The translations under genes and the position numbers were made by a program. A stretch of 64,000 nt of DNA from Omnitrophica WOR_2 bacterium GWF2_43_52 (GTDB taxonomy: Bacteria > Omnitrophota > Gorgyraeia > Gygaellales > UBA12090): NCBI GenBank assembly GCA_001805445.1, contig MHGF01000029.1:4270-68269 (forward strand), written 5' to 3'. The notes under the pieces were generated by a model. That model ran no database searches. It was not told where the DNA came from and worked only from the letters and a program-made list of their open reading frames with translations. Shown here one piece after another: positions 27,362 to 48,610 of the stretch (its first letter is position 1; each line of letters opens with the position of its first letter).

Positions 27362-30300
27362 ATGGTACGTAAGATAATCTCAATAGTAGTAACGATAGGC
27401 TTACTCTTTAACCAAGGCGGGGTTATTTATGCCGCGGGTGAACTTAACCTTTCAAGCTATCTTAGCCAGTTGCATACGAGCCTGGTTAAGCCCGATATCT
27501 TCCGGCCGGTGCACCTGCGCTATTTCTCCTATGACAGCCTGAATAACAGCTACAAGATACTCTTGGATAAAGGAGACTACACCAAGTCACCAAGTCACCA
27601 GGACACCCCCGACGCTTCGGTCGGGGCAGGCAGGTCACCAGAAGAAGATCTCGTGCTCAAGGAAACTGCCCAGGAGTTGATGGACTACTTCCTGATAGGA
27701 GTAACTCTCCCCAATGATACTTTTTGGGTAAACCTAAGGCCTGATGCCCCGGATACCATCATAGACCCTGAGTTAGAGACAACCGATATAGGTAAGATAT
27801 TCCTTGAGGCCGACCTCCAGCTCAAGAAGGATACCGCGAGCTTTACTTCACCCCAAACCCCTGAAGGCAAACAGTATTGGGATAAACTCTATAAAAAGGC
27901 AGGGGAATTATTTGGCTCGGAGAATATTACCATACCTACCTTAACCCGCCCATGGATAGTGCCCAATGAAATCATCGTAAGAGAAACAGATGATTCGGCC
28001 TATGTGTACAAAGCAACGCTTAAGGTGTTGCTGGAAGAAGATTATCTAAAAAGCTCTCAGCCTTCAGCTCTCAGCCCTCAGCAATACAATTTTAAAGATT
28101 CAAGGTTAAAAGAGCTCAATGAATACTCTACCCAGCTTATCAGAGAAACTATAATTCCTAAGCTTACCAGAGAGGTAAACTCAAGCCAAAGGTATGCTAA
28201 GTTACGGCAGGTATACTATTCGCTGATACTTTCAAGATGGTTTAAGGCTCGTTTTAATAGTAAAGAGTCACAAGGTCACCAAGTCACAAGGTCACAAGGA
28301 GAAAATTACATTAATTTAATTGATAGGCGTAATCTCACTAACCTTACCTCAGAAGAACTATGGGATAAGATTACCTATTTTAACCAATACAAAGACTCCT
28401 TCAACAAAGGTGAATATAATATCAAGGAACCTACGTTTACTGCCTACGGCCAGAGTATCAGGAGTTATACCAGCGGGGGGATTGGCATTGGGCAAGCGAT
28501 ATTACCTTTTGAAGCTGATATGCAAGGTCAAGGCGCAGGGAGTCCAATACGGGGAGGAAGTTTTCAAGGGAATAATCCTGTTATTTCTGATGCGGTAATT
28601 GGCGCAGATGAAAAGAGTATAGTTTTAGATGAAAATCTTGAAGTTGTTGAACAGAAGCCTGTTGCCCTCGCCGCCTCGCCGGTGACTGTTGAAGATGCAG
28701 ATCAAAAGATTCTGGATATTCTTGAAGAAGAATTTATTTCAGATATTTTCCCAAAAGATGTGGTAGAGAAGTTTAAAGAATATAAAAGCATTAAAATTAG
28801 CAAATTTAGCAATATTGATAAGGATGTTGGAATGCCCCATGCAAGAAAAGATATAGAGAAATTATCCAGAATAAAAGGCTTTCTTAGGTATGTTATGAAT
28901 GAGTACACTAAAATAAAAGAAAAAGATGAGACCCGAGCGCGGGTACTCCTTAATAAGATAAAAATCTTGCAAGAATATCTAGAACAAGCATTAGGTGGAG
29001 AATTGTCAGTGCTTAAGGAATTTGCCGCTAATATTAATGCTGGAAAAATAACAGTTATTAGCGTTGCCATATTAAAGCAATGGGAAAAATTAATGGCTGA
29101 TATGCTTATTTCTGAAAGATACCACGCATTTGTTAAGCATTTGACTAAGAGAAATATAGAATTCTCTCGGGCAGGGAGCCTGATGAAGATATTGAACTTA
29201 GAAAGAGCAGGTAAGCGCGCCACGCAATTTAAAATTAAAGCTGGAGAGACTCTCGAGAAAAAATATAACCCCGGAGATAAATTTATTTTCAACGATGTTT
29301 TGCCGGATATTGCTTTAGGAATTAACTTTGGGGGGATACTTACTGATATAATAGTAAACGCTAATCCGCTCTTGTGGGGAAATGTGCTTATTCTTCCCGA
29401 TCCCAGTAAGTGCCTTAGCCAATATTTTAACAAAGAAGCAGCGATAGTAGCTCTTAATTTATTGGATAAGTTTAACAACCCGGGTTATAAACTAGGATTT
29501 AATGGCCCTGGGGCTTTTGCTTCTGTCCCTCAACTTCATCTGCAGGGATTTGATTATTTTGACAGCACTGGAGAAGATAAATTGCCCGTAGAAAACGCTG
29601 AAAAAACTTCTTTTTTCAGCAATAACAACGTATCCATTATGACTCTATCAGATTGGGCAGTCAATACCATTGTTTTAAACGGTAGTTCATTAGATTCATT
29701 AAACAAAGCGCTGGTATTACTTACCGATATATTGCATAAACGTAATCAACCGTTTAATATCGTTTTCACAAAAAATAGTGATAACAACTATGCTGTGTAT
29801 GTTTTTCCTAGAAAGCTGGAAGGCCCTGGGGGGGTTTTTGGCACAGGCGTTGCATTTTTAGAGTTAGCCGGAGCAGTATTGTTTACTAATCAGAATTTTG
29901 GCGGAGTGATGTTAAAAGATAAAGATAAAGAAAATCTTGAACAGCGCATAGCTTATCTTAAAAACATACGTCAGATAATATTTGGGGGTGGGACTATTGC
30001 AGAAGACCTCGTTCAGAGTGTTGGACTCGATTGGAAGGATGTTTCCAGCAAATTGATCGAAAATGGTTGGGCGAAGCCAAAAAATAAAACAGAAGTGACT
30101 TTAACAGCAAGTTTGGAACAGGTAAAAGACAGCATGTCAAGAGTTTTTGGTGATAAATGGGAAAAAATTATCTCAATCCTGGAGATTGATGACTTTCGTT
30201 ATGAAAATGAAAAAAACAAAGACGGTGATTATGTTTATTATGCTCGTCCCAAGAGAAGCGGTGAAAGCAAAGAAATTACCCCGTCGGATCTTAGCAATAA

Positions 30301-33300
30301 ATTTATGCACTATATTGATTTATCAAATATAGTGGAAATTCTTTATCAGAAAGCTGGGAGAGAGCCAGAGTTGAGAAAGTATTATGAGAAGATAACAAGC
30401 GAGTTTTATAAGGAAAAATCAGTAGATAATTACAAACAAGCTGAAGAAGATGATTTGCGAAAAGATATTGCCGCCGTGGGGATAGATGATGGCACATTTG
30501 AGAAAATTTTAGAAGTTTATAAAGATCAGTTAGTAAATTTATTCTCTGCCGCCTCGCCGCTGACAACGTTGAAGGAGAAGATAAGCGGGGTGTTCGAGAA
30601 AATACAGGAAAAGATAAATGACCAAGGACTCTTAAATTATAAAGAAGAATTAGCATCATTCTTGGAGAATTTAGAAAAAGATTTAGAAAGGCCGTTAAAT
30701 GAGATAGATAATGTTGTGAACGGGCAAGGCACTCTAAAAGATGCTTTTAGCGCGATTGAAAAAATATCAACTATTCTATTTAATAAGGAAGGTGAAATAG
30801 GCAGTATCCATACCGATATCAAGTCTATGATGGTAAGTTTGCACAGGTATGAACTGCCATCGCTTATGAGGCAAATTGAAAAGAGCCTTGGGCAGAGGGA
30901 AATCACCGCCTCGCCGCTGACGAAACAGACCGTAAAAGATGTACAATTTAACCCAGGAGAAAAGGTGTTCTTGCGCGCTGAGGTTAATATGCCAACCGAT
31001 GAGCAAAGAAATATCACTGACTATACGCGCCTTAAACAGGCGTTACCTACTATCAAATATTTGATAGGACAAGGAGTGAAGCTTGTTATTGCAGGACACC
31101 TGGGCCGGCCGCAGGAGGAGAAAAACAAGGATTTCAGTTTAGATATAGTAGCTCAGGCTCTACGATCTGAGTTGCCAGGAGTAACCATTACATTTGACAA
31201 GACAATCTTTACCCCTAAAGACGCGGAAGGTTTTATTAATTCCGAGATGAAAAACGGGGATATTTTACTTTTAGAAAACGTCCGGATGAATAAAGATGAA
31301 GAACAAAAAGAAGGGATTAATAGCCAATTCGCCAAAGATTTGTTTTTTGGCATAGATAAATATGTTTCAGATGCCTTTGGGGTTATGCATAGAGAAAACA
31401 ATGTTTCAATGGTTGGCGCTCCTAAGGGGATGCCGCGTGTTGCCGGGCTTTTAGTCCAGAAGGAAATAGAGTACCTGAATAAGATTTTGAATCCTGATGT
31501 GGCAATTGTCGGAGGAGCAAAAGTATCCGATAAAATTAAAATAATAGAGAAGCTTTTAGAAAAAGCGGATAAAATTCTTATTGGCGGGGCAATGACATTC
31601 GCTTTTGAAAAAGCCATGGGGAAAGATATTGGCAATTCTAAGCTTGGTAAGAATAAGGAAGAGGCAGAAAGAGAAACGCAATTTGCAAGGCAGCTTCTTG
31701 AAAAGGCGAAAGGAAAAATAATCCTTCCTTTGGATCATATAGTTGCAGATAGATTTAATAATGATGCGGAAAGAAAATCTGCGGAGTCAGGCAAGATCCC
31801 TGACGGCTGGATGGGCTTAGACATTGGCCCTGAGACTATTAAGCATTACAGAGCAATCATTGAGGAGGCGGAAACAGTTATCTGGAACGGCCCTATGGGG
31901 GTATTTGAATTTGATAATTTTGAGCAAGGCACGAGAGTAATAGCCGAGGCAATGGCAGTGGTAAAGAAAAAAGGCGGTATCGCGGTGGTAGGAGGGGGAG
32001 ATTCTGCTTTCGCGGTAGAGAAGTTTGGGCTAGCTGGTGAAATGTCACACGTATCTACAGGAGGAGGCGCGGCCTTAAAGTTTATCGAAGATGATGGCAA
32101 TTTGCCAGGAATTCTAGTGTTAAGTGATAAAGTAGAGGGCATCACCGCCGGCCTGCTGGGAGAAGAAATGTCGGGGGTGTATGGCGAGAATGCGCAGCCT
32201 TTACGCTATGTTTCTGTTGAAGATTTAACTGAGGGGGAACTTAGCTCTTTGAGAAGTTCCATCGTTGAGCGGATGACGTTGTCTGCAAGGGAAACGGATA
32301 ATACATATAAAAATGCGCGCTTTGCGGTTGAAATAGACCAAGGTAAGATTATTGTCTGGGGGAGGTTGGAATATAATGAAAAGACAAATGCAATAAGCCA
32401 GATTATCTTCCCGAACGCTCTAAACCTGAGCGAAGATAAGAAAAAAGATATAGAGGCTGCCTTTATTCAGGCATGGGATGAAGAATCGAAAATAAATGTT
32501 CTTTACACCGCCTCGCCGTTAGAATCTACTCCAGAGATATATGTGTTGGATAATCATCTATCGCTTGCAGAAGGAGCTAAAACCGGGAAGGCTAATATTG
32601 GGCTTGCTAAATCTAGCCTATACGATGGAGGAATTTTAAATCATTCTGAGGAGCGTGCCAGGCTTGAGTGGGCTATAGGGAATGTATTAGGAAGAATACT
32701 TTATTTTGGGTATGAGCGGTTTGACAGTGAACTTAACCGCATGGTTTTTGCTGATGAAGCAGTAGGAATTTGGAAAGCAACTTTAGCAACCGAAGGTATA
32801 TCCGAAACTGATTATAAAGAATATTTTGATCTTCAAAAAGAAAAGGACAAGATTAATCGTGATAATCTGCAAGATAGCGCACGCTCTATAGTGAACAGAA
32901 TAATTAATCTTCAGTTGAAAAAACTAATAGCTTCTACAAAGGGGGAAAAGGGGTATCCAGTCAAACAAGTTGTACTTTGCGTTGGTGAGGATTTAGGTCA
33001 GCGTTACGCAGGGCGGACGCAGGATGTTTTAAGGCAGGACATAAAGGAAATTTTAAAGGACATAATGAAAGAAGATGTGCAGAAATATGGGGGTATTGGT
33101 TTGAGGATAGCCTATGAGCCGCGCTGGGCAATTGGAACAGGCAAAACGCCTACATTGGAAGAGATTCAGAATGCGCATAGATTTATAAAAGATACTCTAA
33201 AAAGCGCAGGAGTACTAGGCATAGAGCTTGATGTTGATTATGGCGGAAGCTTAAACGCAAAGAACAAAGAGATATTATCTTTGCCTGACGTTGACGGTGG

Positions 33301-36229
33301 GCTTATTGGCAGTGCTGCCAAAACCGTTGAGGCAATCAAACCGGTTATAGAGGAAGCGATTATTCAAGGGGAGAAAAAGGGGAAAATCCTCAATATCGGG
33401 ATGAACTGGAAGGCTGAAAATAGAGGAACTGGTTTAGCCCCGCTGGGAAGCTTTATGGCATTTTTCAAGAGCCCTGGTTTTAATATTGTGGGTAAGCTAA
33501 GCATAGCCATTGGAACTACCCGGGTTAGAGATGTTAAAATGGCAGTATTGGGGGTTAAAGAGTATTATAAAAAAATTTACCAAGCAGCCGCCTCGCCGCT
33601 GGCGCTGGAGAATGAAGTGAAGGTGATACAGGAAGTAAGAGAAAAATTAAATGCATATCATAGCGGTACTATACTGCAATTCTCAAACGTATCGCTATCG
33701 AACCTTATAATATCAGTCACAAAGATGGCTAACGAAATTCAGCCAATGAATCGTATGGCTTTACCCGAAGAAGCACAAAAATGGTTTGGTATTGAAGCAG
33801 GGCTTGTACGGATTCAGGCCAAAGTCAGAGAAAATATGGAAGCATATAAAAAAGAGTTGGCAGCTTTTTATGCGGAAATCGGGCAGCATTCATATATTAA
33901 ATTGGATGAAGAGCAGAAATTATACTACACTAATAAATATGCCCGTGATATTGAAACGACGAATGACGTAGATGTAATTATTGAAGCGGCAGAACATGCC
34001 TATCGGCTGCGGGAGACTTATTTAGCGCAAGAGGCACAAAAAAAGATTGTTTCTCAGGGTAATACTTCCGCCGCCTCACCGTTGACGCTTAAGGAATTCT
34101 CTAAAAAGCTTGATCAGATGCCTAATAATAAAGTGTCGTCTCACGAAGCATTTTTAGAATTAATTAAGATGGCATCAGAGCTTTCAGCCCGGGAGGAGAT
34201 ACCGGAAAATATCCAAGAGAAAATATACGCGGCAGTCAGCCGTATCATGCCTGTGGCAGGTGAATATGTTGATAAAGAGCGTAAGGATATCCCCGGGCAG
34301 GCCCGTACTATAGAACCTATCCTGGCTATAATTGAAAGCGGATTAGAAAATTATATGGTTAAAGAGGATATGGGGTTTAAATTAGTGGACGCTATTGAGA
34401 AGGCCTTAACAGGGCATCTTGCCTATTCAAGGTATACACAACAGATAGATGATGTAATAACCGCAATAAAAAAAGATCATATTAAGATAGAAAAGATTCA
34501 AGAGTTTATTAAAGATTCGTTTAGCCAGTATGATGGCATTAAAGATGCGATTGATTTTAAGAGCGGAGAAATCGCGGAGTTGCTTGAGAAAAATAAAGAG
34601 GCTAATGCATTACTCGCGTCAGTAAGGCAGGCAAAGGAGATAACCGCTAAGCAAAGCGGCAATACAATCAAAGGCACGTATATAGACCAATCCCTCTTTG
34701 ACGCTATGGCTTGGGATATAATGATCCAAAGAGTAAGAATCGATAAATTAGAGGAAATTCTGGATGAACAGGTGAGCCGGACGAATCAATTTTTTACCAG
34801 TGATTCTATCAAGCTTTTCTGTAAGGAGTTTAAGGAAGCAGGCAAAACCGGGAAAAAACGCGTATTAGTTTCCAGGTTTAATGAAATCCGGGAAGAGGGC
34901 TCAAGAACCGATAGCGAATTGATCCAGCTAAGAGATTACTTAGCCGGGATTTTAGGAGTATATTATTTAAAAGCGGCTGAGGAGGTAAGAAGCAAGCTTA
35001 CGCCACAGGATACAGTAGAATATAAAGAAGCCCTTGATGCGGCAGGACAAGTTATTGATCTTCTTCTTAAAGGTAACGTAAAGGATCAGTTGTTTTCCGC
35101 GCAATTAGATACCGTTGTCAAGGCGTGGGATAGTATGCAAAAATCCCGTTCATCGTCGGCGCTTACCGCTGAAGAATTTATTCTTGCGGTAGATGCTCTT
35201 GGGAAAATGGCCAAAGAGAAGACGATCTCATATGAAACTGCTTTTGACAGAATGGTAGGAGCGGTTTCGGCTCTTGAAAAAGATGTAGTGGTTCCTTATG
35301 CTAAAATAGCCGATGAGTTGTATTCAATAATTCACAATGGGGTGGCGCTTGACCCTTATAGGTTAACTCTCTGGGAAGATGCCAAAGAAACGTTGTTAAG
35401 AAGGAAGAAATATGCCAGAGAGGGCATTCTTGATATGATTGAAAAAAGATTAGAGATATATAAGCGTGATTTAGCGCAGAAAGCGGGTAAAGATCTTAGC
35501 AAGTGGATAGGCGCGCTCACCGCTCACTTAGGCGCAGGTATCCGCGACTATAAAGAACACATAAACTCTATTAAAAGTACTGAGGATTTATTGTTGACTA
35601 AGGTTCAAGAGTTTTCTTCGGTCAATCGAGCGGTACAGAAGAAAGAATGGTCTGATGATAAAGAGAAGTATTATGAAGCTATGAAAAGGAAAGGCGTTTC
35701 TATTGACGAATTGAAAGGGAAATTGGATGAGATAGATAAATATAACGAATTCCTCTTAACAGTAGCTAAAGCGCGAGAAGCCATCTCTGCCGGCCAAAAA
35801 TCGTCTTCGTCGTCGCTTGTCGCTCAAGAGCCTGCTCAAGACTTTGCTATCCCTGAAGCCCAAAATACCTTCGGTGGTATTGATATGACCGACAGGGCGC
35901 TGCATATTAACTTTGAGCGCTGGGGAAGCCTTGCGGATATAGAGATGGAGCTGCCAAAACTCAGTCATGTGGAAGCGATTGATTTAGACAATGAATACCA
36001 GCAGATACAGGCCATGGCCTCATCCGGCATCAGGCCTTCAGATACGCGTATTTTGGAGTTTATCGCCGCCTGCTATTATAGGGAAGAATTTAGCCAAAGG
36101 CTTTCTGAAATCACCGCCTGCCTTAAAGAAGCGCATGCCTTGGATGAGCGTGAGGGAAAAGAAAGCAGCGAGACCCTGCGTTTAGCCACCTTGCTCCCTG
36201 ATGCGTTGTACGTAAATAGCCTGAATTAA
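27362..36229 (+). CDS. Giant secreted multidomain protein (~2,955 aa) containing a phosphoglycerate-kinase domain and a triosephosphate-isomerase-like domain
   Basis: RBS AGGAGG precedes the ATG at 27362. A signal peptide (MVRKIISIVVTIGLLFNQGGVIYA) is present. The PGK motifs are HLGRPQ, IVGGAKVSDKIKIIEKLLEKADKILIGGAMTFAF, GGGDS and STGGGA. The TIM motifs are AYEPRWAIGTGKTPT and YGGSLN...VDGGLIGSAA. The conserved N- and C-terminal domains are shared with the 813-aa paralog. Confidence 0.8.
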   Translation: MVRKIISIVVTIGLLFNQGGVIYAAGELNLSSYLSQLHTSLVKPDIFRPVHLRYFSYDSLNNSYKILLDKGDYTKSPSHQDTPDASVGAGRSPEEDLVLKETAQELMDYFLIGVTLPNDTFWVNLRPDAPDTIIDPELETTDIGKIFLEADLQLKKDTASFTSPQTPEGKQYWDKLYKKAGELFGSENITIPTLTRPWIVPNEIIVRETDDSAYVYKATLKVLLEEDYLKSSQPSALSPQQYNFKDSRLKELNEYSTQLIRETIIPKLTREVNSSQRYAKLRQVYYSLILSRWFKARFNSKESQGHQVTRSQGENYINLIDRRNLTNLTSEELWDKITYFNQYKDSFNKGEYNIKEPTFTAYGQSIRSYTSGGIGIGQAILPFEADMQGQGAGSPIRGGSFQGNNPVISDAVIGADEKSIVLDENLEVVEQKPVALAASPVTVEDADQKILDILEEEFISDIFPKDVVEKFKEYKSIKISKFSNIDKDVGMPHARKDIEKLSRIKGFLRYVMNEYTKIKEKDETRARVLLNKIKILQEYLEQALGGELSVLKEFAANINAGKITVISVAILKQWEKLMADMLISERYHAFVKHLTKRNIEFSRAGSLMKILNLERAGKRATQFKIKAGETLEKKYNPGDKFIFNDVLPDIALGINFGGILTDIIVNANPLLWGNVLILPDPSKCLSQYFNKEAAIVALNLLDKFNNPGYKLGFNGPGAFASVPQLHLQGFDYFDSTGEDKLPVENAEKTSFFSNNNVSIMTLSDWAVNTIVLNGSSLDSLNKALVLLTDILHKRNQPFNIVFTKNSDNNYAVYVFPRKLEGPGGVFGTGVAFLELAGAVLFTNQNFGGVMLKDKDKENLEQRIAYLKNIRQIIFGGGTIAEDLVQSVGLDWKDVSSKLIENGWAKPKNKTEVTLTASLEQVKDSMSRVFGDKWEKIISILEIDDFRYENEKNKDGDYVYYARPKRSGESKEITPSDLSNKFMHYIDLSNIVEILYQKAGREPELRKYYEKITSEFYKEKSVDNYKQAEEDDLRKDIAAVGIDDGTFEKILEVYKDQLVNLFSAASPLTTLKEKISGVFEKIQEKINDQGLLNYKEELASFLENLEKDLERPLNEIDNVVNGQGTLKDAFSAIEKISTILFNKEGEIGSIHTDIKSMMVSLHRYELPSLMRQIEKSLGQREITASPLTKQTVKDVQFNPGEKVFLRAEVNMPTDEQRNITDYTRLKQALPTIKYLIGQGVKLVIAGHLGRPQEEKNKDFSLDIVAQALRSELPGVTITFDKTIFTPKDAEGFINSEMKNGDILLLENVRMNKDEEQKEGINSQFAKDLFFGIDKYVSDAFGVMHRENNVSMVGAPKGMPRVAGLLVQKEIEYLNKILNPDVAIVGGAKVSDKIKIIEKLLEKADKILIGGAMTFAFEKAMGKDIGNSKLGKNKEEAERETQFARQLLEKAKGKIILPLDHIVADRFNNDAERKSAESGKIPDGWMGLDIGPETIKHYRAIIEEAETVIWNGPMGVFEFDNFEQGTRVIAEAMAVVKKKGGIAVVGGGDSAFAVEKFGLAGEMSHVSTGGGAALKFIEDDGNLPGILVLSDKVEGITAGLLGEEMSGVYGENAQPLRYVSVEDLTEGELSSLRSSIVERMTLSARETDNTYKNARFAVEIDQGKIIVWGRLEYNEKTNAISQIIFPNALNLSEDKKKDIEAAFIQAWDEESKINVLYTASPLESTPEIYVLDNHLSLAEGAKTGKANIGLAKSSLYDGGILNHSEERARLEWAIGNVLGRILYFGYERFDSELNRMVFADEAVGIWKATLATEGISETDYKEYFDLQKEKDKINRDNLQDSARSIVNRIINLQLKKLIASTKGEKGYPVKQVVLCVGEDLGQRYAGRTQDVLRQDIKEILKDIMKEDVQKYGGIGLRIAYEPRWAIGTGKTPTLEEIQNAHRFIKDTLKSAGVLGIELDVDYGGSLNAKNKEILSLPDVDGGLIGSAAKTVEAIKPVIEEAIIQGEKKGKILNIGMNWKAENRGTGLAPLGSFMAFFKSPGFNIVGKLSIAIGTTRVRDVKMAVLGVKEYYKKIYQAAASPLALENEVKVIQEVREKLNAYHSGTILQFSNVSLSNLIISVTKMANEIQPMNRMALPEEAQKWFGIEAGLVRIQAKVRENMEAYKKELAAFYAEIGQHSYIKLDEEQKLYYTNKYARDIETTNDVDVIIEAAEHAYRLRETYLAQEAQKKIVSQGNTSAASPLTLKEFSKKLDQMPNNKVSSHEAFLELIKMASELSAREEIPENIQEKIYAAVSRIMPVAGEYVDKERKDIPGQARTIEPILAIIESGLENYMVKEDMGFKLVDAIEKALTGHLAYSRYTQQIDDVITAIKKDHIKIEKIQEFIKDSFSQYDGIKDAIDFKSGEIAELLEKNKEANALLASVRQAKEITAKQSGNTIKGTYIDQSLFDAMAWDIMIQRVRIDKLEEILDEQVSRTNQFFTSDSIKLFCKEFKEAGKTGKKRVLVSRFNEIREEGSRTDSELIQLRDYLAGILGVYYLKAAEEVRSKLTPQDTVEYKEALDAAGQVIDLLLKGNVKDQLFSAQLDTVVKAWDSMQKSRSSSALTAEEFILAVDALGKMAKEKTISYETAFDRMVGAVSALEKDVVVPYAKIADELYSIIHNGVALDPYRLTLWEDAKETLLRRKKYAREGILDMIEKRLEIYKRDLAQKAGKDLSKWIGALTAHLGAGIRDYKEHINSIKSTEDLLLTKVQEFSSVNRAVQKKEWSDDKEKYYEAMKRKGVSIDELKGKLDEIDKYNEFLLTVAKAREAISAGQKSSSSSLVAQEPAQDFAIPEAQNTFGGIDMTDRALHINFERWGSLADIEMELPKLSHVEAIDLDNEYQQIQAMASSGIRPSDTRILEFIAACYYREEFSQRLSEITACLKEAHALDEREGKESSETLRLATLLPDALYVNSLN

Positions 36230-36239
36230 CCGATAGCTA

Positions 36240-36385
36240 CCAATGCCCGCCAATGCCAGGCATAGTCAAGTAAGAATTGTTAATGCCTGGTATCTTAGTG
36301 TTATCAGTGCCAGACATATACAACGCGTAAACAACTTGCCTATGCCTGGCACTGTCTATTTATAGATGCCAGGCATTGCTCTTTT
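36240..36385. repeat. Dispersed copies of the palindromic motif (A)TGCCAGGCAT downstream of the giant gene
   Basis: aatgccaggcat, aatgcctggtat, agtgccagacat, atgcctggcact and atgccaggcatt, spaced about 25-30 nt apart. Confidence 0.5.
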
Positions 36386-36403
36386 TTTAGCAGAAAAAAT
36401 ATT

Positions 36404-36826: not shown

Positions 36827-36828
36827 GC

Positions 36829-37224: not shown

Positions 37225-37251
37225 CGGGGTTTACTCAAAAAGAGGTGCCTT

Positions 37252-38073
37252 GTGTCAGGCTCTGAAAGCTCCTCACAGGAATTAGCAAATTTTATCGGTA
37301 TCACGGTTAAAGGTTTAGGTGATTCAGGCCTTGGGATATTCCTTCATCGCTGGGAAAATGTGATTTTTTCCTTGATAGCGGTGGTGTTTCTATCTCTTAT
37401 GGCTTACTTTGCCCAGCGTAACCGCTCTTTTGTCCCTGAGCGAAGGCTCCAGAATATGGTTGAGGTACTGGTTGAGAGTTTAAGTAATTTTGTCTCCGGG
37501 GTCCTGGGTGAAAAAGAAGGCAGGCATTATCTTCCGTATATAGGCACGCTTTTTCTCTATATCTTAATTATGAATTTTATGGGTATGGTGCCGGGAATGA
37601 AATCGCCCACGTCCAGCCTGAACACGACTGTGGCACTTGCGCTTTGCACCTTTATCTACGTGCAATATACCGGGATACGGAGGCTGGGAATGATCGGCTA
37701 TCTTGACCATATGGCAGGAAGCCCGCGCATGCCTGAGGAAAAAGGCGTTTTTAAAATATTCTTAATTTTACTGTTTATTCCTATCCATATCCTTTTATTC
37801 ATTATCCATATTATTGGCGAGTTTGTAAAACCAGTAAGCTTATCCCTGCGTCTTTTTGGGAATATTACCGGTGAAGACGCGCTTTTGTATGTGTTTGTTA
37901 TGTTGGGGCTTTCAATGTTTTCTGCCTGGAAAAGTCCCGTAGGGTTCCCTCTGCAGATACCGATAATGTTTTTGTCGTTAATCGGGGGGGCGGTGCAGGC
38001 AATGGTCTTTAGCCTGCTTTCGGCAGTGTATATCTCGATGATGCTTCCGCATCATGAAGAAGTGAAACATTAA
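37252..38073 (+). CDS. atpB: F0F1 ATP synthase subunit a
   Basis: 273 aa. Conserved Arg within LSLRLFGNI. Confidence 0.85.
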   Translation: MSGSESSSQELANFIGITVKGLGDSGLGIFLHRWENVIFSLIAVVFLSLMAYFAQRNRSFVPERRLQNMVEVLVESLSNFVSGVLGEKEGRHYLPYIGTLFLYILIMNFMGMVPGMKSPTSSLNTTVALALCTFIYVQYTGIRRLGMIGYLDHMAGSPRMPEEKGVFKIFLILLFIPIHILLFIIHIIGEFVKPVSLSLRLFGNITGEDALLYVFVMLGLSMFSAWKSPVGFPLQIPIMFLSLIGGAVQAMVFSLLSAVYISMMLPHHEEVKH

Positions 38074-38096
38074 TAAGAAAGGAGAAACGTAAAAAA

Positions 38097-38339
38097 ATGG
38101 ATGCAAATACAGCATTAGCACTTTCTTTGCCGTTTGGATTGGCAATCGCCGCGCTGGCAAGTGCCTTCGCGTTGGGCAGGGCAGTGTCGGCAGCAATGGA
38201 TGCCATGGCGCGCCAGCCTGAGGCAGCCCCGAAAATTCAGGTGGCGATGATTATCGGATGCGCTTTTATTGAAGCATTGACGATTTACGCGTTTGTTATC
38301 GCGTTTCTTTCAATGGCAAAGATACAGGCGGTTCATTAA
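38097..38339 (+). CDS. atpE: F0F1 ATP synthase subunit c
   Basis: 80 aa hairpin protein. Within IEALTIYAFVIAF, the E of IEAL is the proton-binding carboxylate. Confidence 0.85.
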   Translation: MDANTALALSLPFGLAIAALASAFALGRAVSAAMDAMARQPEAAPKIQVAMIIGCAFIEALTIYAFVIAFLSMAKIQAVH

Positions 38340-38340
38340 T

Positions 38341-38440
38341 CTACAATGTAGGGCTACGCGAATAAACGCGAATAAAAAGATTGAGAATATTCGCGAATTA
38401 AAATTCGCGTAAATTTACGTAACAATGTAAAGTTGTTTCA
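38341..38440. repeat. Palindromic array with the variant core CGCGAAT/ATTCGCG
   Basis: acgcgaat aaacgcgaat ... attcgcgaat taaaattcgcgt aaatttacgt. An ACAATGTA direct repeat flanks the array at both ends. Confidence 0.55.
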
Positions 38441-38469
38441 TTGCAGTAACTTTTTAGTAAGGCACGAAC

Positions 38470-38955
38470 ATGATGAATCTTGATTTTCAACAGGTACTTA
38501 CCCAAGCCGTAGGTTTTCTCATCCTTTTGGGGCTGCTCAAGCTGTTTTTCTGGAAGCCGGTCATATCTTTACTTGACCAGAGGAAAGAAAAGATAGCCGC
38601 GGAGTTTAAACACATTGAGGACGCCAAGGCAGAGCTTGCTACATTAAAGGCTGAATATGAAACAAGGCTTGCCTCAATTGAGGAAATCGCCCGGCAGAAG
38701 ATAAAAGAGGCTGTTGAAGAAGGAAAAAGAATAACCGATGAGTTGAAGTCCAAGGCTGAGGAGCAGGCACGCCAGATAATAGAAAGTGGCCGGGAGAATA
38801 TCAGGCAGGAGCTCTTAAAGACAAAGCAGGAATTAAAAAGCCATATCGTGGATTTGGCGTTAAGGGCTACTGAGAGTATTATCCTTGAGAAACTCACGGC
38901 AGATCATGACAAGAAGCTGGTTGAAGATTTTCTTGACAAGATAGACAGGGCCTGA
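38470..38955 (+). CDS. atpF: F0F1 ATP synthase subunit b
   Basis: N-terminal TM segment followed by a long charged coiled coil. Confidence 0.8.
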   Translation: MMNLDFQQVLTQAVGFLILLGLLKLFFWKPVISLLDQRKEKIAAEFKHIEDAKAELATLKAEYETRLASIEEIARQKIKEAVEEGKRITDELKSKAEEQARQIIESGRENIRQELLKTKQELKSHIVDLALRATESIILEKLTADHDKKLVEDFLDKIDRA

Positions 38956-39016
38956 TGAACCCCGCGCCTTCTAAAATGTTTAAAAGATTAAAAATGAATA
39001 AGAACGAAGGTGCGGG

Positions 39017-39565
39017 GTGAAGGACGATGTGCTAGCAAAGAGATACGCCGATGCCTTTTTAAGCTATGCCTGCCAGGGCCTAAGTGAAGAAAAGGCGCTT
39101 GACGATTTTAAAAAGGCAAGGGAAATTCTCTTAGAGAATAAAGAGCTTATTCTTGATTTCTTGGAAGCTCCGGCAGTAACCGTGCTTGAGAAAAACGCCT
39201 TTATTGATAAGTTCTTTGGCGAGGGCTTCTCAGAAGAGTTCCGGCAGTTTTTAAAATTTCTTTTAAAGAAAAACAGGATCGACAAACTCTGGGATGTCGC
39301 GGAATATGTCAGGGTCGCCTATTCTCACGGCAAAAGCGTAAGGGCGCTGCTTAAGACGAGTTTTCCTTTAGATTTGGAATTGGTCCAGTTGATTATTGAC
39401 AGCCTGGAGAGAAAGTTCCAGAGAAAAATCAAACTGTATATAGAGCTTGACGGCGAGCTGTTAGGGGGAGTTAAGGTGGTCATAGGCAACAAGGTAATTG
39501 ATGGGTCCGTGAAAAGGCGTATTGAAAGGCTTAAAGAACGATTTGAAACACTAAGGACTGCGTAA
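39017..39565 (+). CDS. atpH: F0F1 ATP synthase subunit delta
   Basis: 182 aa OSCP/delta-like protein, positioned between atpF and atpA. Confidence 0.75.
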
Positions 39566-39566
39566 A

Positions 39567-41096
39567 ATGGCGATAAAACCGGAAGAAGTAACATCAATAC
39601 TCAAGAAAGAATTAGAAAAGTACCGTTCAAAGATTGAGGTGGAGTCGGTTGGTACCGTAATCCAGGTGGGAGATACTATTGCCCGCGTCTATGGCCTGGA
39701 TGATGTGATGATGGGTGAACTGGTGCAATTCCCCGGCGGGATTATGGGAATGGTGTTAAACTTGGAAGAAAATAGCGTGGGTGTGGTTATCTTCGGGACT
39801 GACAATGCTGATATGACTATCCGCGAGGGGGATATTGTCAAGCGCACAGGAAAAATTGTCCAGGTCCCTGTGGGTAATGCCCTGGTGGGACGGGTAGTAA
39901 ACGCGCTGGGAAGCCCGATTGACGGTAAAGGCGCCGTGGTTACGGATAAATATCGGCCTCTTGAAGCAGGCGCCCCTAATGTCATTGACCGTCAGCCGGT
40001 AAAAGAGCCGCTTGAAACCGGCATCAAGGCAATTGATTCAATGATTCCTATCGGTAGAGGGCAAAGAGAGTTGATTATCGGCGACCGCCAGACAGGAAAA
40101 ACCGCGATTGTTATTGATACTATCATCAATCAAAAAGGAAAAGGCGTTTACTGTATCTATGTGGCGATAGGCCAGAAGATGTCAAGTGTGGTGGCTATAC
40201 ATGAACTTCTGAAGACCTATGGGGCAATGGAATATACTACTATCGTCAGCGCCTCAAGCCGGGCATCAGCATCGTTACAGTATTTAGCGCCGTACGCTGG
40301 ATGCGCGATAGGCGAAGAGATGATGTATTCGGGAAAGCATGTGCTAGTGATTTATGATGACCTTTCTAAGCATGCCCAGAGCTATCGGCAGCTGTCGTTA
40401 CTTTTAAGGCGCCCACCGGGAAGAGAGGCATATCCCGGTGACGTGTTTTATCTGCATTCCCGCCTTTTAGAGAGGGCGGCAAAGCTCAAGGATTCCTTAG
40501 GCGGAGGCTCGCTTACCGCGTTACCTATAATTGAGACACAGGCCGGAGATATCACCAGCTATATCCCGACTAATGTTATTTCAATTACTGACGGCCAGAT
40601 TTACCTTGAGAATGACCTATTTTATTCAGGGGTGCGCCCGGCTATAAACGTGGGGCTATCCGTTTCAAGAGTCGGAGGCAAGGCCCAGATAAAGGCAATG
40701 CGCCAGGTGGCCGCGAAGCTGCGCCTTGACCTGGCCCAATACAGGGAATTGGCGGCGTTTGCCCAATTCGGAAGCGAATTGGATAAGACTACCCAGATGC
40801 AGCTGACCCGCGGGGAGAAGATGGTTGAAATACTCAAACAGGCGCAGTTTGTGCCGCTTCCGGTGGCAAGGCAGATTTTGATTATTTATTGCGGCACGCG
40901 CGGGTTTCTTGACGATTTGCCGATACACTTACTCAAGGATTTTGAGGCCAAAATCTTCGCGCATATCGAGAAGGAATATCCTGACCTTGAGTATGAGATT
41001 GAGAATAAAAAAGAATTAAGCCCTGATTTGATGAAAAAGCTTGATGAGATAATTGCTTCGTTCAAGCAGTATTTCAAAGGCACAGGCGCAAGCTAA
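39567..41096 (+). CDS. atpA: F0F1 ATP synthase subunit alpha
   Basis: 509 aa. Walker A GDRQTGKT. Confidence 0.95.
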
Positions 41097-41110
41097 CCGC
41101 ATTCAGTCGT

Positions 41111-43382
<2,272 letters not shown>

Positions 43383-43386
43383 GATA

Positions 43387-43644
43387 ATGGAAAAAGACTT
43401 TTTACTTACCATACTTTGCCCGGATAAAAAATTATACGAAGGGAGAATCAAGTCGTTAATAGTGCCTTCTGAATTAGGGTATCTTGGTGTCCTCGCTAAC
43501 CACGCCCCGCTTATCACTAACCTTGTTCCCGGAAAAATCACCATCCGCAATCCATCCGATGAGATAACCGTACTTCATGCTCACGGTAAAGGCTTCTTAG
43601 AAGTTTTTAAGAATAACGTCACCCTCCTCGTAAGCGCCGCCTGA
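43387..43644 (+). CDS. atpC: F0F1 ATP synthase subunit epsilon
   Basis: The ATG lies 4 nt after the atpD stop and the product has an epsilon beta-sandwich N-terminus. The tracked ORF starting at 43351 is an in-frame upstream extension overlapping atpD. Confidence 0.8.
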   Translation: MEKDFLLTILCPDKKLYEGRIKSLIVPSELGYLGVLANHAPLITNLVPGKITIRNPSDEITVLHAHGKGFLEVFKNNVTLLVSAA

Positions 43645-43715
43645 TGCGCTTAACCACGTTCATTTAATTATAATAGTCTAAAGAATTGACAGCGTCTCTG
43701 GACACTAAAAAACAA

Positions 43716-43748
43716 AAAAGCCCTTTATCCAAGGGCCCTTTTGGAGGC
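43716..43748 (+). terminator. Rho-independent terminator after the ATP synthase operon
   Basis: aaaaagccctttatccaagggccctttt. A second hairpin plus T-run (tagcgcttgtcgcta ttttttt) follows at about 43758-43785. Confidence 0.6.
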
Positions 43749-44206
43749 TATAAACCTCTAGCGCTTGTCGCTATTTTTTTCCTCCTTTATTTATGAGTTC
43801 TTAGGGATTGTTGCTTTAGGGAGGCAGTTCCCCAAGACTTTTAGAAAACTTGTAACTAAAGTATGCCATAAGAAAACAAAAAAACAAGGGGTAAAAAGCC
43901 ATTTTTAGAAAGCGTTTTCTCGGTGTTTGAAATAATGAAAACTTGGATAAACGAATTCAGGCGGATGGTTACGGATGTCGCGGATAAAAAAATCTGTTTG
44001 CATTCGTGTATTTAATCAATGCGCAAAAATCTATTCTGATTCATTGGTAAATAAAATATTACAAAAAGTGCTTACAACAAAATCGGGAAAGCTTCCTTGA
44101 TTTTGGTTGACAAGCTTACCTTTTATGCTATCCTAAAATAAATAGATTTATAAAATAACGCTGCGGTAATGATAAGAATTAATTTCATAACAGGAAGGCG
44201 CGCTGA

Positions 44207-45844
<1,638 letters not shown>

Positions 45845-46168
45845 TCGCGAATTTTCTATCTTCTTTCTCCGTTATTGTTATCCTGCCTAGTTAAGATCTC
45901 CCTCCTCGCTTGCCTGCCGGCAGGTAAGCCGAGGCAAAATCTCTAATCCAGAGGAATATATTTTTCTCTCCATTAAAAGAAAGGTTTTCGATAATTTTTG
46001 CCTCAGTCGGCCGGATAATTAAGTTATTGCCTTATTAAAGAAAACGCTTTCCCGAAACCCCTGTTTTAGCCTTGTAATCCTAAGAATCGAGGGTATACTT
46101 TAATTACCAATTGAAAACTCAAAAAAGTTTATGTTTTCCTCTAAAACAATTTTTAGGAGATATGGCCA

Positions 46169-48610
46169 ATGCTAAAAAAGACGATAGCCGTTTTTTTATC
46201 TTTTAACTTCCTCTTCACCCAATGCCTTTTTGCCCAAGGCGTAGCCCAACTTAATATAGGAAGCTACCTGCGTACTGCAACGAGCAGTATGGCAGTGGAT
46301 AAATTCCGCCCTGTGCATATGCGTTATTTCTCCTATGATATAGCAACGGATAAGTTTGAAATGCTTTTGGATAAGGGAGACAATAAGGATATAAAGGAAG
46401 ATGAGCTTAAGGATAAGTCTAAAGCATTGATGGAGTATTTTCAGATTGGATTATCTTTGCCTAACGATAAGTTTTGGGTGAACTTGAGGCCGGATGCGGA
46501 AGACCAGATAATTGATCCGGAACTGGAAAAGACTGATGTGGGCAAGATTATGCTTGAGGCTGACCTGCAGTTAAAGAAAGACACCGCAAGTTTTACTTCG
46601 CCTCAAACTCCGGAAGGAAAAGAATATTGGGATAAGTTGTATAAAAAAGCAGGTGAGCTCTTCGGAACAGAAAATATCACTATCCCCACTATAACCCGTC
46701 CCTGGATAGTCCCGGGGGAGATAATTATAAGAGAAGGGGAAGATTCTGGTTCGACTTCGCTCACCACAAGCGCCTATATCTACAAGGCGAATATGAAGGT
46801 GATGTTAGAGCAGGATCACCTTCAGGGGACAGGGGGAAGAGTTCAGGGGATAGATTACAGTTTTAAGGACCCACGAATGAAGGAATTGAATGAATATTCC
46901 TCACAGTTAATCCGGGAACTGATTATCCCTAAGCTGACCAAAGAGGTAAATATCTCCAAAAGATACGCCGCTCTTCGGCAGGTATTCTTTTCCTTGGTAA
47001 TGGCTCGCTGGTTTAAGGATAATTTCACCGGAAAACCCGGCACCTACGCCAGCCTGATTGACAGCCATAACCTTAATGATATTAGCTCTCAAGAACCCTG
47101 GTCAAAGACTGTTTATTTCAACCAATACAAGGAGTCTTTTGCCAAGGGCGAATATAACCTCAAAGAGCAGGTAGCCACTCCCTATGGACAGACGATTCGA
47201 AGTTATGTGAGCGGGGGAGTTGTGATGAATTTCGCTAAGAACATATACGAAGGAGGTAAGAAATTATTCTTGCCTGTTTTGTTTGCAGGAGTCTCAAATT
47301 TATCTCTTTTTGCTGGTAATGGTGATACGGGAGCAATGAGAAAGGTGGGGGCTGAAGAATATTCTGTAAGGCAAGAGAAGGCATTAACAGTGGCTAATTA
47401 TCTTAGAGCAAAGAAAGAAACGCAGGATAATATTAGAGCATTTACGCGCGATCTCGAAAAAAAATTTCCTCTTAGCCCCCAGATTATTAGGAAAATCCAA
47501 GAATATATTATTGGTTTTTCTTCAAAAGTTCTCAGTTTAAGTCCTCAAGACTCGAGAGAGAAAAGAATAGGAGATATCCTAAAAGATATAAGAGAAGAAT
47601 TCGGACAAGATTATCCAATTACAGGTATGAATGAATCTCTGGAAGGAATACTCAATCCGCTAGATACACTTGCAAATGAAAATAACTCTATAGAGCTTAA
47701 TGAGGCAATAAGATTAGCGATAAGACAAGCTACGTTAGATTTAAGGTCATCAATTGAACGAAGTCTTAAGGAGAGAACAGGCTCTTCGCCTCTTGCGGAG
47801 AAAGAAAAGATATCGAGGCAAATTTGGCTGGCTATGGCTGATTTGAAAAAGCTGCTTAATGATTTGGATGGAAAGATTACGCCTGAGGATATGAAGCCAG
47901 CCCAGGTACCTTTTGGTCCGGAGGTGCCAACGGTAAGATCTCCTGAGAGGGCTGTAAATATATTGCTTAATCTTATAGCGGATTATTTAAAAGATATGAA
48001 TAGTATTCCATCAGGCCTGGATACTTTCATAAGGATAATGGAAAACTATCGTGATAAGGACTTAAAAGAGGTTTTAGAAAAATATAAGTTTGTGGATAAG
48101 CTTAATCAAATTATTGAGAAGCTTAGCCCTAAGCAAAAAGATGCGGTTTCTCCGGAGGTGAGCATAGAAGCAACTCGGGAGAAGCAGGCAGCAAGCCCTC
48201 TTGCAGGTAGTGAGCCCTCTAGAGATACCTTAGGCGGTATTGACTTTCGTGCCATGAATTACCTCACGCAGCCGATGGGTAGTTTTCAGGGGCTTAATTT
48301 TACCCTGCCTCTGCTTAGCAGCAGCGCTCTTGAGGCAATAGACTTGGATGAAGAATTAGACCAGATAACGAATATGGCCATGCAGGGGATAATTCCTTCC
48401 GGCCAAAGGATAAAGGAGTATTTGGCTGCTTGCTTCCAGAAAGGCAAGATTGAGGATAAACAGGAATACTTGCTCTTATGCTTAGTTGAGGTCTGCCGCC
48501 TGCTTGAGGATGAGAATATGGAGAGCGCACCTGAGCTTCGGGAAGCCATAGTCATTGCCGATTCAGGGAGGTTTGTCTTGCAAGCAAAAGAGAATATTTC
48601 GCTGAATTAG
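46169..48610 (+). CDS. Secreted 813-aa paralog of the giant protein (shared N- and C-terminal domains, unrelated middle)
   Basis: Signal peptide MLKKTIAVFLSFNFLFTQCLFAQG. The N-terminal ~380 aa are about 60% identical to the giant protein (FRPVH(L/M)RYFSYD, WVNLRPDA, LEADLQLKKDTASFTSPQTPEGK, YWDKLYKKAGELFG). The C-terminal domain begins GGID and ends SLN in both proteins. Confidence 0.7.
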   Translation: MLKKTIAVFLSFNFLFTQCLFAQGVAQLNIGSYLRTATSSMAVDKFRPVHMRYFSYDIATDKFEMLLDKGDNKDIKEDELKDKSKALMEYFQIGLSLPNDKFWVNLRPDAEDQIIDPELEKTDVGKIMLEADLQLKKDTASFTSPQTPEGKEYWDKLYKKAGELFGTENITIPTITRPWIVPGEIIIREGEDSGSTSLTTSAYIYKANMKVMLEQDHLQGTGGRVQGIDYSFKDPRMKELNEYSSQLIRELIIPKLTKEVNISKRYAALRQVFFSLVMARWFKDNFTGKPGTYASLIDSHNLNDISSQEPWSKTVYFNQYKESFAKGEYNLKEQVATPYGQTIRSYVSGGVVMNFAKNIYEGGKKLFLPVLFAGVSNLSLFAGNGDTGAMRKVGAEEYSVRQEKALTVANYLRAKKETQDNIRAFTRDLEKKFPLSPQIIRKIQEYIIGFSSKVLSLSPQDSREKRIGDILKDIREEFGQDYPITGMNESLEGILNPLDTLANENNSIELNEAIRLAIRQATLDLRSSIERSLKERTGSSPLAEKEKISRQIWLAMADLKKLLNDLDGKITPEDMKPAQVPFGPEVPTVRSPERAVNILLNLIADYLKDMNSIPSGLDTFIRIMENYRDKDLKEVLEKYKFVDKLNQIIEKLSPKQKDAVSPEVSIEATREKQAASPLAGSEPSRDTLGGIDFRAMNYLTQPMGSFQGLNFTLPLLSSSALEAIDLDEELDQITNMAMQGIIPSGQRIKEYLAACFQKGKIEDKQEYLLLCLVEVCRLLEDENMESAPELREAIVIADSGRFVLQAKENISLN

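Follow-up and report, generated by a model that had tools for sequence, protein, structure and literature searches.

A family of putative modular enzyme carriers with two orphan end-domains in one class of Candidatus Omnitrophota

The two genes and their common ends

We analyzed a stretch of 64,000 nucleotides from Omnitrophica WOR_2 bacterium GWF2_43_52 (assembly GCA_001805445.1, contig MHGF01000029.1, positions 4,270 to 68,269 of the forward strand), which is called the window below. The window contains two genes whose protein products are similar at both ends and differ in the middle. Gene 1 (27362..36229, according to the open reading frame (ORF) and its translation) encodes a protein of 2,955 amino acids (aa) that consists of a signal peptide, an N-terminal domain (N-domain), six cargo or spacer modules and a C-terminal domain (C-domain). 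Gene 2 (46169..48610) encodes a minimal member of the family, an 813-aa protein in which the signal peptide and the N-domain are followed by a helical spacer of about 335 aa without a known domain and then by the C-domain. Both genes and all their parts given below are on the + strand. Both ORFs were found where the original prediction, made from the sequence alone, had placed them. The frame of gene 1 is open from 27206, while its real start is the ATG at 27362, with an AGGAGG ribosome-binding site 8 nt to the 5' side. The part of the ORF between 27206 and 27362 is a non-coding leader.

Signal-peptide-like segments, which had also been expected, were recognized by eye at both N-termini: MVRKIISIVVTIGLLFNQGGVIYA in gene 1 (27362..27433), with likely cleavage after IYA, and MLKKTIAVFLSFNFLFTQCLFA in gene 2 (46169..46234), where a family-wide pattern adds to the reading. 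Both begin with M-x-[KR]-K, after which come 12-14 hydrophobic residues and then a small-x-Ala site (IYA/A in gene 1, LFA/Q in gene 2; the slash marks the cleavage point). The corresponding n/h/c pattern (M-x-KK, 12-14 hydrophobic residues, G-F-A/Q) is present in more than 100 homologs. No hydrophobic segments beyond the signal peptide were noticed by eye in either window translation.

The N-domain occupies 27434..28480 in gene 1, where it ends with RSYTSGG, and 46235..47218 in gene 2, where it ends with RSYVSGG; the boundaries follow from BLASTP, alignment A1 and a structure model. The N-terminal ends of the two proteins are 51% identical over 442 aa (BLASTP, E 5e-133), and the identity rises to 60% for the trimmed domain in alignment A1. 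The identity of about 60% that had been noted for a domain of about 380 aa thus holds for the trimmed domain, but the conserved length is only about 330 aa: the last 50 residues or so are conserved among close relatives only and are modelled as disordered. The C-domain of gene 1 (35873..36226, delimited by BLASTP to gene 2) starts with GGIDM. That of gene 2 (48233..48607, from alignment A2 and a model with pLDDT 81) starts with a GGIDF strand followed by a five-helix bundle. The C-terminal ends are 35% identical over 168 aa (E 2e-19), and the C-domain of gene 1 is 63% identical to that of a paralog on contig C19 of the same genome. Both window C-domains begin with GGID and both proteins end with SLN, as had been described, but the terminal SLN is not a family-wide feature. 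Both proteins have everything that defines the family: a signal peptide, an N-domain with FWVNLRPD, TRPWIVP and SLxLxxWFK, and a terminal GGID-helical C-domain.

Neither end-domain belongs to a described family, in agreement with the original prediction. Pfam and NCBIfam scans of both window proteins gave no match to either of them, no convincing match to a solved structure was obtained, and no characterized sorting or anchoring family came up. Across the family the N-domain (about 330 aa) is 57-77% identical to that of gene 2 and has 51 invariant columns in A1. Its AlphaFold2 model, built from an alignment of 120 sequences, has pLDDT 80 (core above 90) and pTM 0.77, and predicts a mixed alpha/beta fold in which three beta-hairpins pack against long helices. 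Nothing similar to this model was found among solved structures: its best Foldseek match in the PDB had E 0.048 with a TM-score below 0.15, Z did not exceed 4.0 in the VIA wide search, and the viral library gave nothing meaningful. Its neighbours in the ESM Atlas are Omnitrophota clusters and one cluster of Actinomycetota LPXTG proteins (TM-score 0.56). The C-domain (about 120 aa) is modelled with pLDDT 81 as an extended GGIDF segment and five helices; in A2 G, D and R are invariant, and G-I-F, E, S and E are nearly so. Foldseek against the PDB gave a best E of 0.3 for the C-domain and the ESM Atlas a TM-score of at most 0.42. The best Z in the VIA wide search was 8.9, for designed helical binders and HEAT/ARM-like repeats, which is below the level that would mean more than a generic helical bundle. 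Both end-domains are therefore orphans without a solved relative. ClyA-family pore formers (NheA, MakB, YaxB), considered as a lead to translocation, were dropped (Foldseek probability at most 0.04, TM-score about 0.1).

Family size and distribution

The two genes had been described as a two-member family; in fact the genome itself encodes 14 members, and hundreds to thousands exist elsewhere. A six-frame search of the assembly (2.47 Mb, 40 contigs, 94% complete) revealed 14 genes that start with the N-domain and close with the C-domain. Their products range from 813 to 2,955 aa, and together they take about 69 kb, or about 2.8% of the genome. One of them is cut by contig ends and one is broken by an in-frame TAA.

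The broken paralog is L011 (G000:C22:8927-12640), in which the single TAA (...GVMN*SDASS..., the asterisk being the stop) parts a 614-aa half with the N-domain from a 622-aa half with the C-domain. A comparable split was seen in another metagenome-assembled genome (MAG), where an N-domain ORF overlaps a PPDK-bearing ORF (L024) by 8 nt, probably due to a frameshift. P0369, once considered a stand-alone N-domain protein, is the first piece of a split gene: a 1,426-aa PPDK-bearing ORF follows after the 8-nt overlap.

A database search with the N-domain found 568 relatives of 447-1,423 aa and 530 of 1,424-4,065 aa, with all best matches at E<1e-120. These proteins share the signal peptide and the N-domain. 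The C-domain is also present in 82 of the first 121, and those without it come mostly from short contigs. The C-domain profile matched 1,199 clusters at 50% identity (422 of them at E<=1e-30) among 1.84 billion representatives; among the 150 best matches listed, none ends more than about 25 residues short of the C-terminus of the protein. Among 201 Omnitrophota species genomes the N-domain was detected in 26, all of them from the class of the window genome, and it is present in 12 of the 17 genomes of a sister family in the same order. Copies per Omnitrophota genome reach at least 10 as scored and up to 65 as first-look candidates. All named sources of relatives are Omnitrophota MAGs or MAGs with generic or automated labels. 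The family is thus restricted to one class of Candidatus Omnitrophota, being found only there among the genomes examined. The sequence of gene 2 (46169-48610) occurs nearly unchanged in public sequencing runs from 11 studies, of groundwater and soil metagenomes; no RNA runs are listed among them.

Enzyme modules in the middles

BLASTP of gene 1 against gene 2 gave no significant match between the two ends. This agrees with the claim of unrelated middles, although the claim overlooked two enzyme modules in gene 1. The first is a phosphoglycerate kinase (PGK) module at 30935..32089 (residues 1244-1628 of the gene 1 protein, P0001). It matches PF00162 with E 1.5e-122 and 409.7 bits (cut-off 27) over profile positions 2-377 of 379 and is thus full-length. 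The substrate and nucleotide motifs of PGK are GHLGRP, K-x-x-x-K, NGPxGVFE, GGGD[ST] and R-x-D-x-N-[SACV]-P. The module has GHLGRP, GGAKVSDKI, NGPMGVFE and GGGDS, and judging by these motifs it looks catalytically intact. The N-terminal motif reads R-A-E-V-N-M-P, with E in place of D and M at the small-residue position.

The second is a module similar to triosephosphate isomerase (TIM) at 32522..33586, in which PF00121 matches 32966-33352 with E 7e-30. TIM is a (beta/alpha)8 barrel with catalytic Lys12, His95 and Glu165. The match in gene 1 covers only profile positions 118-243 of 245, i.e., the C-terminal half. Against TIMs from the PDB the module gives E 3e-23; the AYEPRWAIGTG segment with Glu165 is kept, and NHSEER aligns weakly to GHSERR. 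The module is 44% identical to one of the paralog on contig C28. The best NCBIfam match of gene 1 is the model of bifunctional PGK/TIM, NF010569, with 504 bits for the PGK part, below the 883-bit cut-off. On contig C3 the same genome has stand-alone pgk and tpiA genes next to each other, and the PGK encoded there shares only 42% identity with the cargo PGK. Hence the copies in the cargo are old and come in addition to the housekeeping ones.

The remaining middle modules of gene 1 gave no match in Pfam or NCBIfam, nor in Pfam searches with seven sub-segments of the two proteins at E<=1, and residues 495-1240 gave nothing in a PDB sequence search. The 335-aa middle of gene 2 likewise has no recognizable domain (Pfam and NCBIfam, sub-segments at E<=1). 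The segment GPGAFASVPQLHLQGF (window ~29480-29560, P0001 residues ~760-785) resembles what we take to be the GalT-branch HIT motif of GDP-hexose/Ap4A phosphorylases; this HIT/GalT-like reading found no support in profile hidden Markov model or PDB sequence searches and was discarded.

Other paralogs in the genome carry NUDIX, a second TIM-like module, a PrmA-like methyltransferase, GNAT, an M23 peptidase and a four-domain phosphoglucomutase. We further surveyed the 120 listed longer relatives, with precomputed Pfam domains for 73. Enzymes of glycolysis, gluconeogenesis or the pentose-phosphate pathway are present in 38 of these 73, including hexokinase, GPI, class II aldolase, TIM, GAPDH, PGK, three kinds of PGM, enolase, PPDK, two kinds of FBPase, transaldolase and transketolase. 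They often come in strings: P0145 contains iPGM, GAPDH, TIM and PGK, and P0239 contains enolase, GAPDH, TIM and PGK. Other cargo of the relatives comprises guanylate and adenylate kinases, HD, HAD, metallophosphatase, protein kinase, DnaJ, FHA, HEAT and TPR domains. In P0239 (3,600 aa) the PGK aligns to that of gene 1 in permuted order, the C-terminal part first, which suggests a circular permutation or a split PGK within the cargo string.

The original prediction had named surface, adhesin and effector families as the ones in which such an architecture is typical. Nothing points to an adhesin: the middles are cytoplasm-type enzymes, not adhesive repeats. An effector or surface-display role of the family is possible.

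The junction motif

Between the modules there is a short motif, [AGST][AGST]-S-P-[LV], or more narrowly [AS][AS]-S-P-[LV]; gene 1 has six copies of it and gene 2 has two. The copies in gene 1 are AASPV (28670..28684), AASPL (30548..30562), TASPL (30905..30919, directly before the PGK module), TASPL (32507..32521), AASPL (33587..33601) and AASPL (34070..34084). Gene 2 has GSSPL (47780..47794) and AASPL (48188..48202), the latter 10 residues before GGIDF. The density of the motif is 0.83 per 1,000 aa in 241 family proteins and 0.031 in the non-family, non-giant ORFs of the genome, a 27-fold difference. The motif is located within 80 aa past the N-domain in 118 of 247 proteins and within 30 aa before GGID in 87 of 293; in 112 of the 293 there is none upstream of GGID. 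The codon of the motif Ser differs between copies (TCG, TCT, TCA, AGC), and therefore the target of selection is the protein and not a DNA site. A recombination site as the explanation of the motif was rejected, since both Ser and Ala codons differ between copies.

The motif is also present in contig-spanning pieces of giant ORFs in the same genome: the piece on C6 (11,118 aa) has 11 copies, and pieces on C1, C2, C5 and C7 have the motif as well. This ties the family to the giant proteins of the phylum. Contigs that consist of a single frame and represent giant-gene pieces (11,118, 10,764, 8,344, 5,690, 4,163 aa and so on) are C6, C20, C16, C30, C1, C2, C5, C7 and C17.

Mosaic diversification

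Gene 1 and the paralog on C19 have a DNA identity of about 90% in the first ~1.2 kb, 71-88% in the last ~350 nt, and about 45% between. This bears out the earlier description of conserved ends with a shuffled middle. TIM-like and M23 modules are common to otherwise unrelated middles. The mosaic identity together with the shared modules argues for cassette exchange between conserved ends: the sequences indicate that new members originate when recombination replaces the middle and leaves both ends in place. The N- and C-domain subtypes co-vary within a protein.

A loop of the N-domain (window ~27578-27655) contains a low-complexity insert. In gene 1 it has the degenerate form SPSHQDTPDASVGAGRSPEE, and in the paralogs on C19 and C28 (L015, L016) the same loop contains tandem SPGHQVT heptads.

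Predicted docking of the two ends

The predicted complex of the N-domain with the C-domain received a score of 0.75 (0.80, 0.65 and 0.75 in separate runs), compared with 0.00 in all three controls. Of 80 solved complexes 58 score at least as high, and so do 2 of 110 mismatched pairs; this calibration is only rough here, since the docking was made from our own unpaired alignments. The runs have at least 71% of contacts in common, and the pLDDT of the partners is at least 69. The prediction is unlikely to reproduce a known structure, because no similar complex is known.

On the side of the C-domain the predicted interface includes residues 16-30 (G18 G19 I20 D21 F22 R23). On the side of the N-domain it includes residues 78-86 (F81 W82 V83 N84 L85 R86), 107-114 (LEADL), 156-161 (R156 P157 W158 I159 V160 P161) and 252-260. 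The interface columns of the N-domain have an entropy of 0.51 bits versus 1.02 bits elsewhere, i.e., they are about twice as conserved; the corresponding values for the C-domain are 1.66 and 2.12 bits. Most of the invariant residues of both domains fall within the predicted interface, and it is this that lends the prediction its weight.

Genomic context and upstream elements

The paralogs lie dispersed, with housekeeping genes around them. Those upstream of gene 1 in the window (17317-26081) are type III glutamine synthetase, gltB and gltD; between the two genes (37252-45844) there are the operon of the F-type ATP synthase (a, b, delta, alpha, gamma, beta) and the CTP synthase gene pyrG. Downstream of gene 2 are lpxB and a gene of an MsbA-like ABC exporter, which indicate an outer membrane bearing lipopolysaccharide. 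The genome of 2.47 Mb has nine secretin (PF00263) genes (on C34, C36, C12, C23, C25 and C24); this is unusually many and amounts to a heavy investment in outer-membrane channels. At the 14 loci there is no recurrent small neighbour gene, save two pairs of unrelated small ORFs. The housekeeping surroundings and the lack of immunity-like neighbours led us to reject phage, defense-system and polymorphic-toxin readings. The ATP/ADP translocase family PF03219 was not found in the genome, a result that is uninformative as the control genomes are equally silent.

The leader of gene 1 contains two copies of the palindrome GCAACCTnCGCGGTTGAC, 42 bp apart (27268-27285 and 27310-27327; 93 and 51 bp upstream of the gene 1 start). 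Pairs of a relaxed palindrome, TCAACCTACGAGGTTGA, with the same spacing of 42 bp are located just upstream of the paralogs on C19 and C28, and a single copy is upstream of the paralog on C22. Throughout the genome there are 22 sites with at most one mismatch, most of them 23-75 bp upstream of ORF starts. The palindrome pair looks like a candidate operator of a regulon. Between the ParE gene described below and the leader of gene 1 there is a GC-rich hairpin (GCCGGA...TCCGGC) with a T-run (27208-27250), which to the eye looks like an intrinsic terminator.

Directly upstream of gene 1 (26258-26842), two small genes resemble a toxin-antitoxin pair: a Phd/YefM-like ORF, so named by position and size only, overlaps a gene of a ParE-family toxin (PF05016, E 3.5e-8). 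Downstream of gene 2 (49033-49362) there is a gene of a 109-aa MNT-like nucleotidyltransferase (PF01909). An ORF with 37% identity to this nucleotidyltransferase is located downstream of the paralog on C19.

Discussion

We propose that the members of the family are modular enzyme carriers exported by the Sec pathway, whose two ends form a single clasp and which diversify by cassette exchange. In our estimate this explanation stands about as good a chance of being right as of being wrong. It starts from what was observed: the architecture, the size and range of the family, the identities of the cargo, the enrichment of the motif and the mosaic DNA. A carrier would be composed of a cleavable-type signal peptide, an alpha/beta N-domain of about 330 aa, one to many interchangeable cargo modules and a C-domain of about 120 aa. 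According to the predicted folds and their predicted docking, the invariant GGID[FM]R strand of the C-domain would lie in the groove where conservation of the N-domain is highest (FWVNLR, RPWIVP, LEADL) and thus complete a composite clasp. Closed in cis, the clasp would turn the protein into a loop with the cargo bulging out; closed in trans, it would chain carriers head to tail. We infer that all members use the clasp as a handle, be it for their folding, export or retention or for their assembly outside the cytoplasm. Sugar phosphates and nucleotides would be the substrates of the cargo enzymes, which would work in the periplasm, the cell coat or an attached host or prey cell.

Several points weigh against this explanation. 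PGK, GAPDH and kinases need ATP/ADP or NAD, which are not expected in the periplasm or in the medium. This need favours action within a host or prey cell (or on its leaking contents), or else a cytoplasmic location. Export itself is suggested by a by-eye reading of the N-termini. The docking is a single in-silico prediction, in which cis and trans arrangements look the same. Neither enzyme of gene 1 is certain to be active: the atypical R-A-E-V-N-M-P means that PGK activity is not assured, and Pfam, PDB sequence and sub-segment scans of the TIM module revealed no GNWK-type first strand, which would carry the catalytic Asn/Lys. No recurrent partner gene (transporter, protease or chaperone) adjoins the 14 paralogs. 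Finally, the junction motif would fit a processing site, an O-glycosylated hinge and a helix-capping linker alike, so that it singles out no role. As to the site of action, a host-dependent lifestyle has been proposed for Omnitrophota (PMC10066038), with which a metabolite-rich site in a host or prey would agree, and glycolytic and other metabolic domains of giant Omnitrophota proteins have earlier been noted as predicted to be extracytoplasmic (10.1101/2023.11.21.568195; 10.64898/2026.06.07.730766).

The location of the junction motif (behind the N-domain, between one cargo module and the next, and 9-30 residues ahead of GGID), together with its enrichment, its selection at the protein level and its presence in the giant ORFs of the same genome, would also be expected if the proteins were polyprotein precursors. 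Such precursors would be exported and then cut at S-P-[LV] by a protease or in a target cell, so that free enzymes are released and the two ends are a disposable handle. Prolyl residues after Ser disfavour signal peptidase I, and an O-glycosylated or simply rigid hinge accounts for the motif equally well. The motif is missing at the first junction in about half of the proteins and, as mentioned, upstream of GGID in 112 of 293. No protease domain was found in the window proteins by Pfam, and the only peptidase seen among the other members in the genome is the M23 cargo peptidase of two paralogs. Even with the post-translational cleavage of giant Omnitrophota proteins proposed by West-Roberts et al., we consider this variant unlikely. 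The high-scoring predicted docking raises another variant, in which the C-domain of one carrier binds the N-domain of the next. The 14 paralogs would in this way build a common fibre or surface layer decorated with enzymes, comparable to the giant multi-enzyme proteins but held together without covalent bonds. Since none of the paralog subfamilies deviates at the interface residues, every C-domain might pair with every N-domain, and there are many paralogs per genome; an extracellular coat of giant proteins has been proposed in the literature for Velamenicoccus. Yet docking in cis accounts for the same data, and the co-variation of N and C subtypes within a protein also counts against this variant. 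A head-to-tail polymer is quite improbable in our opinion. Both variants refine the proposal of exported carriers and do not contradict it.

A real contradiction would be a cytoplasmic metabolon tethered to the membrane, in which the hydrophobic segment is an uncleaved anchor, or is not for export at all, and the strings of enzymes channel glycolysis at the cytoplasmic face. It would supply the cofactors that the cargo needs, the PGK looks intact, the order of PGK and TIM is the same as that of the housekeeping pgk and tpiA, and the best NCBIfam match is a bifunctional PGK/TIM. We nevertheless find it highly doubtful. The basic residues, the short core of 12-14 residues and the small-x-small site follow the pattern of a cleavable Sec signal, and even an anchor with its N-terminus inside would put the rest of the protein outside. 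Inspection of the two translations by eye revealed no other hydrophobic segments, separate housekeeping pgk and tpiA genes exist, and the cargo includes an M23 peptidoglycan peptidase, which acts outside the cytoplasm. Chimeric ORFs produced by metagenomic misassembly or wrong gene calling might be suspected, given that the MAG has 40 contigs and that some members run into a contig end or an in-frame stop. However, the same architecture recurs at 14 loci and across hundreds of assemblies made independently, with contigs of 0.2-2 Mb among them, and the sequence of gene 2 is nearly identical in runs from 11 studies, so an artefact is hardly credible.

The closest known systems are the giant multi-enzyme ORFs of the same phylum, called 'Archaeovorins' (West-Roberts et al. 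2023 preprint) or assigned to a 'multi-enzyme metabolic' class (10.64898/2026.06.07.730766). Like the carriers, the giants have signal-peptide or membrane-associated N-termini and strings of PPDK, aldolase, PGM, NUDIX, GNAT, methyltransferases and HEAT, and, as seen in the giant-ORF pieces of the window genome, the S-P-[LV] junction motif. Unlike them, the carriers are 0.5-5.4 thousand aa long compared with 10-147 thousand aa, have no transmembrane helices noticed beyond the signal peptide, and make up a discrete homologous family with two orphan end-domains that are predicted to dock. Traits of Archaeovorins, namely tens of thousands of residues, many transmembrane helices and a C39 or S8 peptidase near the N-terminus, were not seen in the window proteins, which have no peptidase match in Pfam. 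In the Omnitrophota literature searched and in the domain libraries we found neither the carrier family, nor the pair of end-domains, nor their docking, nor the motif shared with the giants. Exported long multi-enzyme proteins are already described for the giants of Omnitrophota (in the two preprints); what appears to be new is the discrete carrier family with its pair of orphan domains that are predicted to dock, and the motif that it shares with the giants.

Similar designs are known elsewhere. In MARTX toxins conserved ends also frame a strain-variable array of enzyme modules with short linkers and module exchange, and effector modules are released by cutting the linkers between domains, to which the polyprotein variant can be likened. 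However, the glycine-rich RTX repeats that MARTX toxins have at both ends and their internal cysteine protease domain were not found in the two window proteins (Pfam, sub-segments at E<=1), their signal is N-terminal and Sec-type and not a C-terminal type I signal, and their cargo is metabolic and not cytotoxic. The ends of flagellins, including enzymatic 'giant' ones, associate, as they are only predicted to do in the carriers, and the middle is hypervariable and sometimes enzymatic. The carriers differ in that they have no Flagellin_N/C match, in the size and fold of the end-domains, and in the Sec-type signal instead of flagellar type III export. Cargo of type IX secretion resembles the carriers in the N-terminal Sec signal, the diversity of enzymes, a single conserved C-terminal domain (CTD) and many paralogs. 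The type IX CTD is a beta-sandwich of ~80-100 aa, whereas the carriers have a predicted strand with five helices, without a Pfam or NCBIfam match, and a second domain at the N-end. The bifunctional PGK-TIM of Thermotoga (NF010569) has PGK and then TIM in one polypeptide, like gene 1; in gene 1 the parts are separated by about 280 residues and a junction motif, the TIM is a half, and both are embedded in a signal-peptide-bearing carrier.

Three more candidates were rejected. Type V autotransporters, in which the translocator is a beta-barrel at the C-terminus (at the N-terminus in the inverse form), gave no Pfam match, and the predicted helical C-domain and mixed alpha/beta N-domain with three hairpins do not form a barrel. 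Polymorphic toxins (Rhs, CDI, LXG), which have a variable toxin tip at the C-terminus and a cognate immunity gene next to it, do not agree with a central variable part, a conserved C-terminus and the absence of a recurrent small neighbour. For cellulosome components, neither dockerin (PF00404) nor cohesin was matched by Pfam in either window protein.

Normally cytosolic sugar enzymes with export signals have a precedent in other host-dependent organisms. Chlamydia secretes glycogen enzymes into the inclusion. Microsporidia secrete hexokinases (PMC6460350). In those organisms single enzymes use ordinary signals, whereas the carriers would be a dedicated scaffold with multi-enzyme strings, and the link to a host or prey is drawn here from the literature on the phylum.

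An extension of the proposal is that the carriers self-assemble through promiscuous docking of N- and C-domains into an extracellular or prey-delivered multi-enzyme assembly. Most of glycolysis, with the ATP-yielding steps of PGK and PPDK among its reactions, would then proceed outside the cytoplasm of the producer. We consider it rather improbable. If true, it would mean an external 'glycolysome' of an ultra-small host-dependent bacterium, held by a clasp of two folds without a solved relative.

Whatever the mechanism, databases label members of the family as 'phosphoglycerate kinase', 'triose-phosphate isomerase', 'enolase' or 'transketolase'. Metabolic reconstructions from Omnitrophota MAGs may therefore count the cargo of signal-peptide-bearing carriers as cytoplasmic central metabolism. 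The two orphan domains are now defined, and each has a testable partner, which is the other one. The carriers also provide a tractable, kilobase-sized model for otherwise intractable giant multi-enzyme proteins with the same junction motif. If the proposal is true, one class of Omnitrophota devotes about 3% of a 2.5-Mb genome to a scaffold that places glycolytic and nucleotide enzymes outside the cytoplasm, and this would bear on how uncultured Omnitrophota nanobacteria exploit their hosts or prey.

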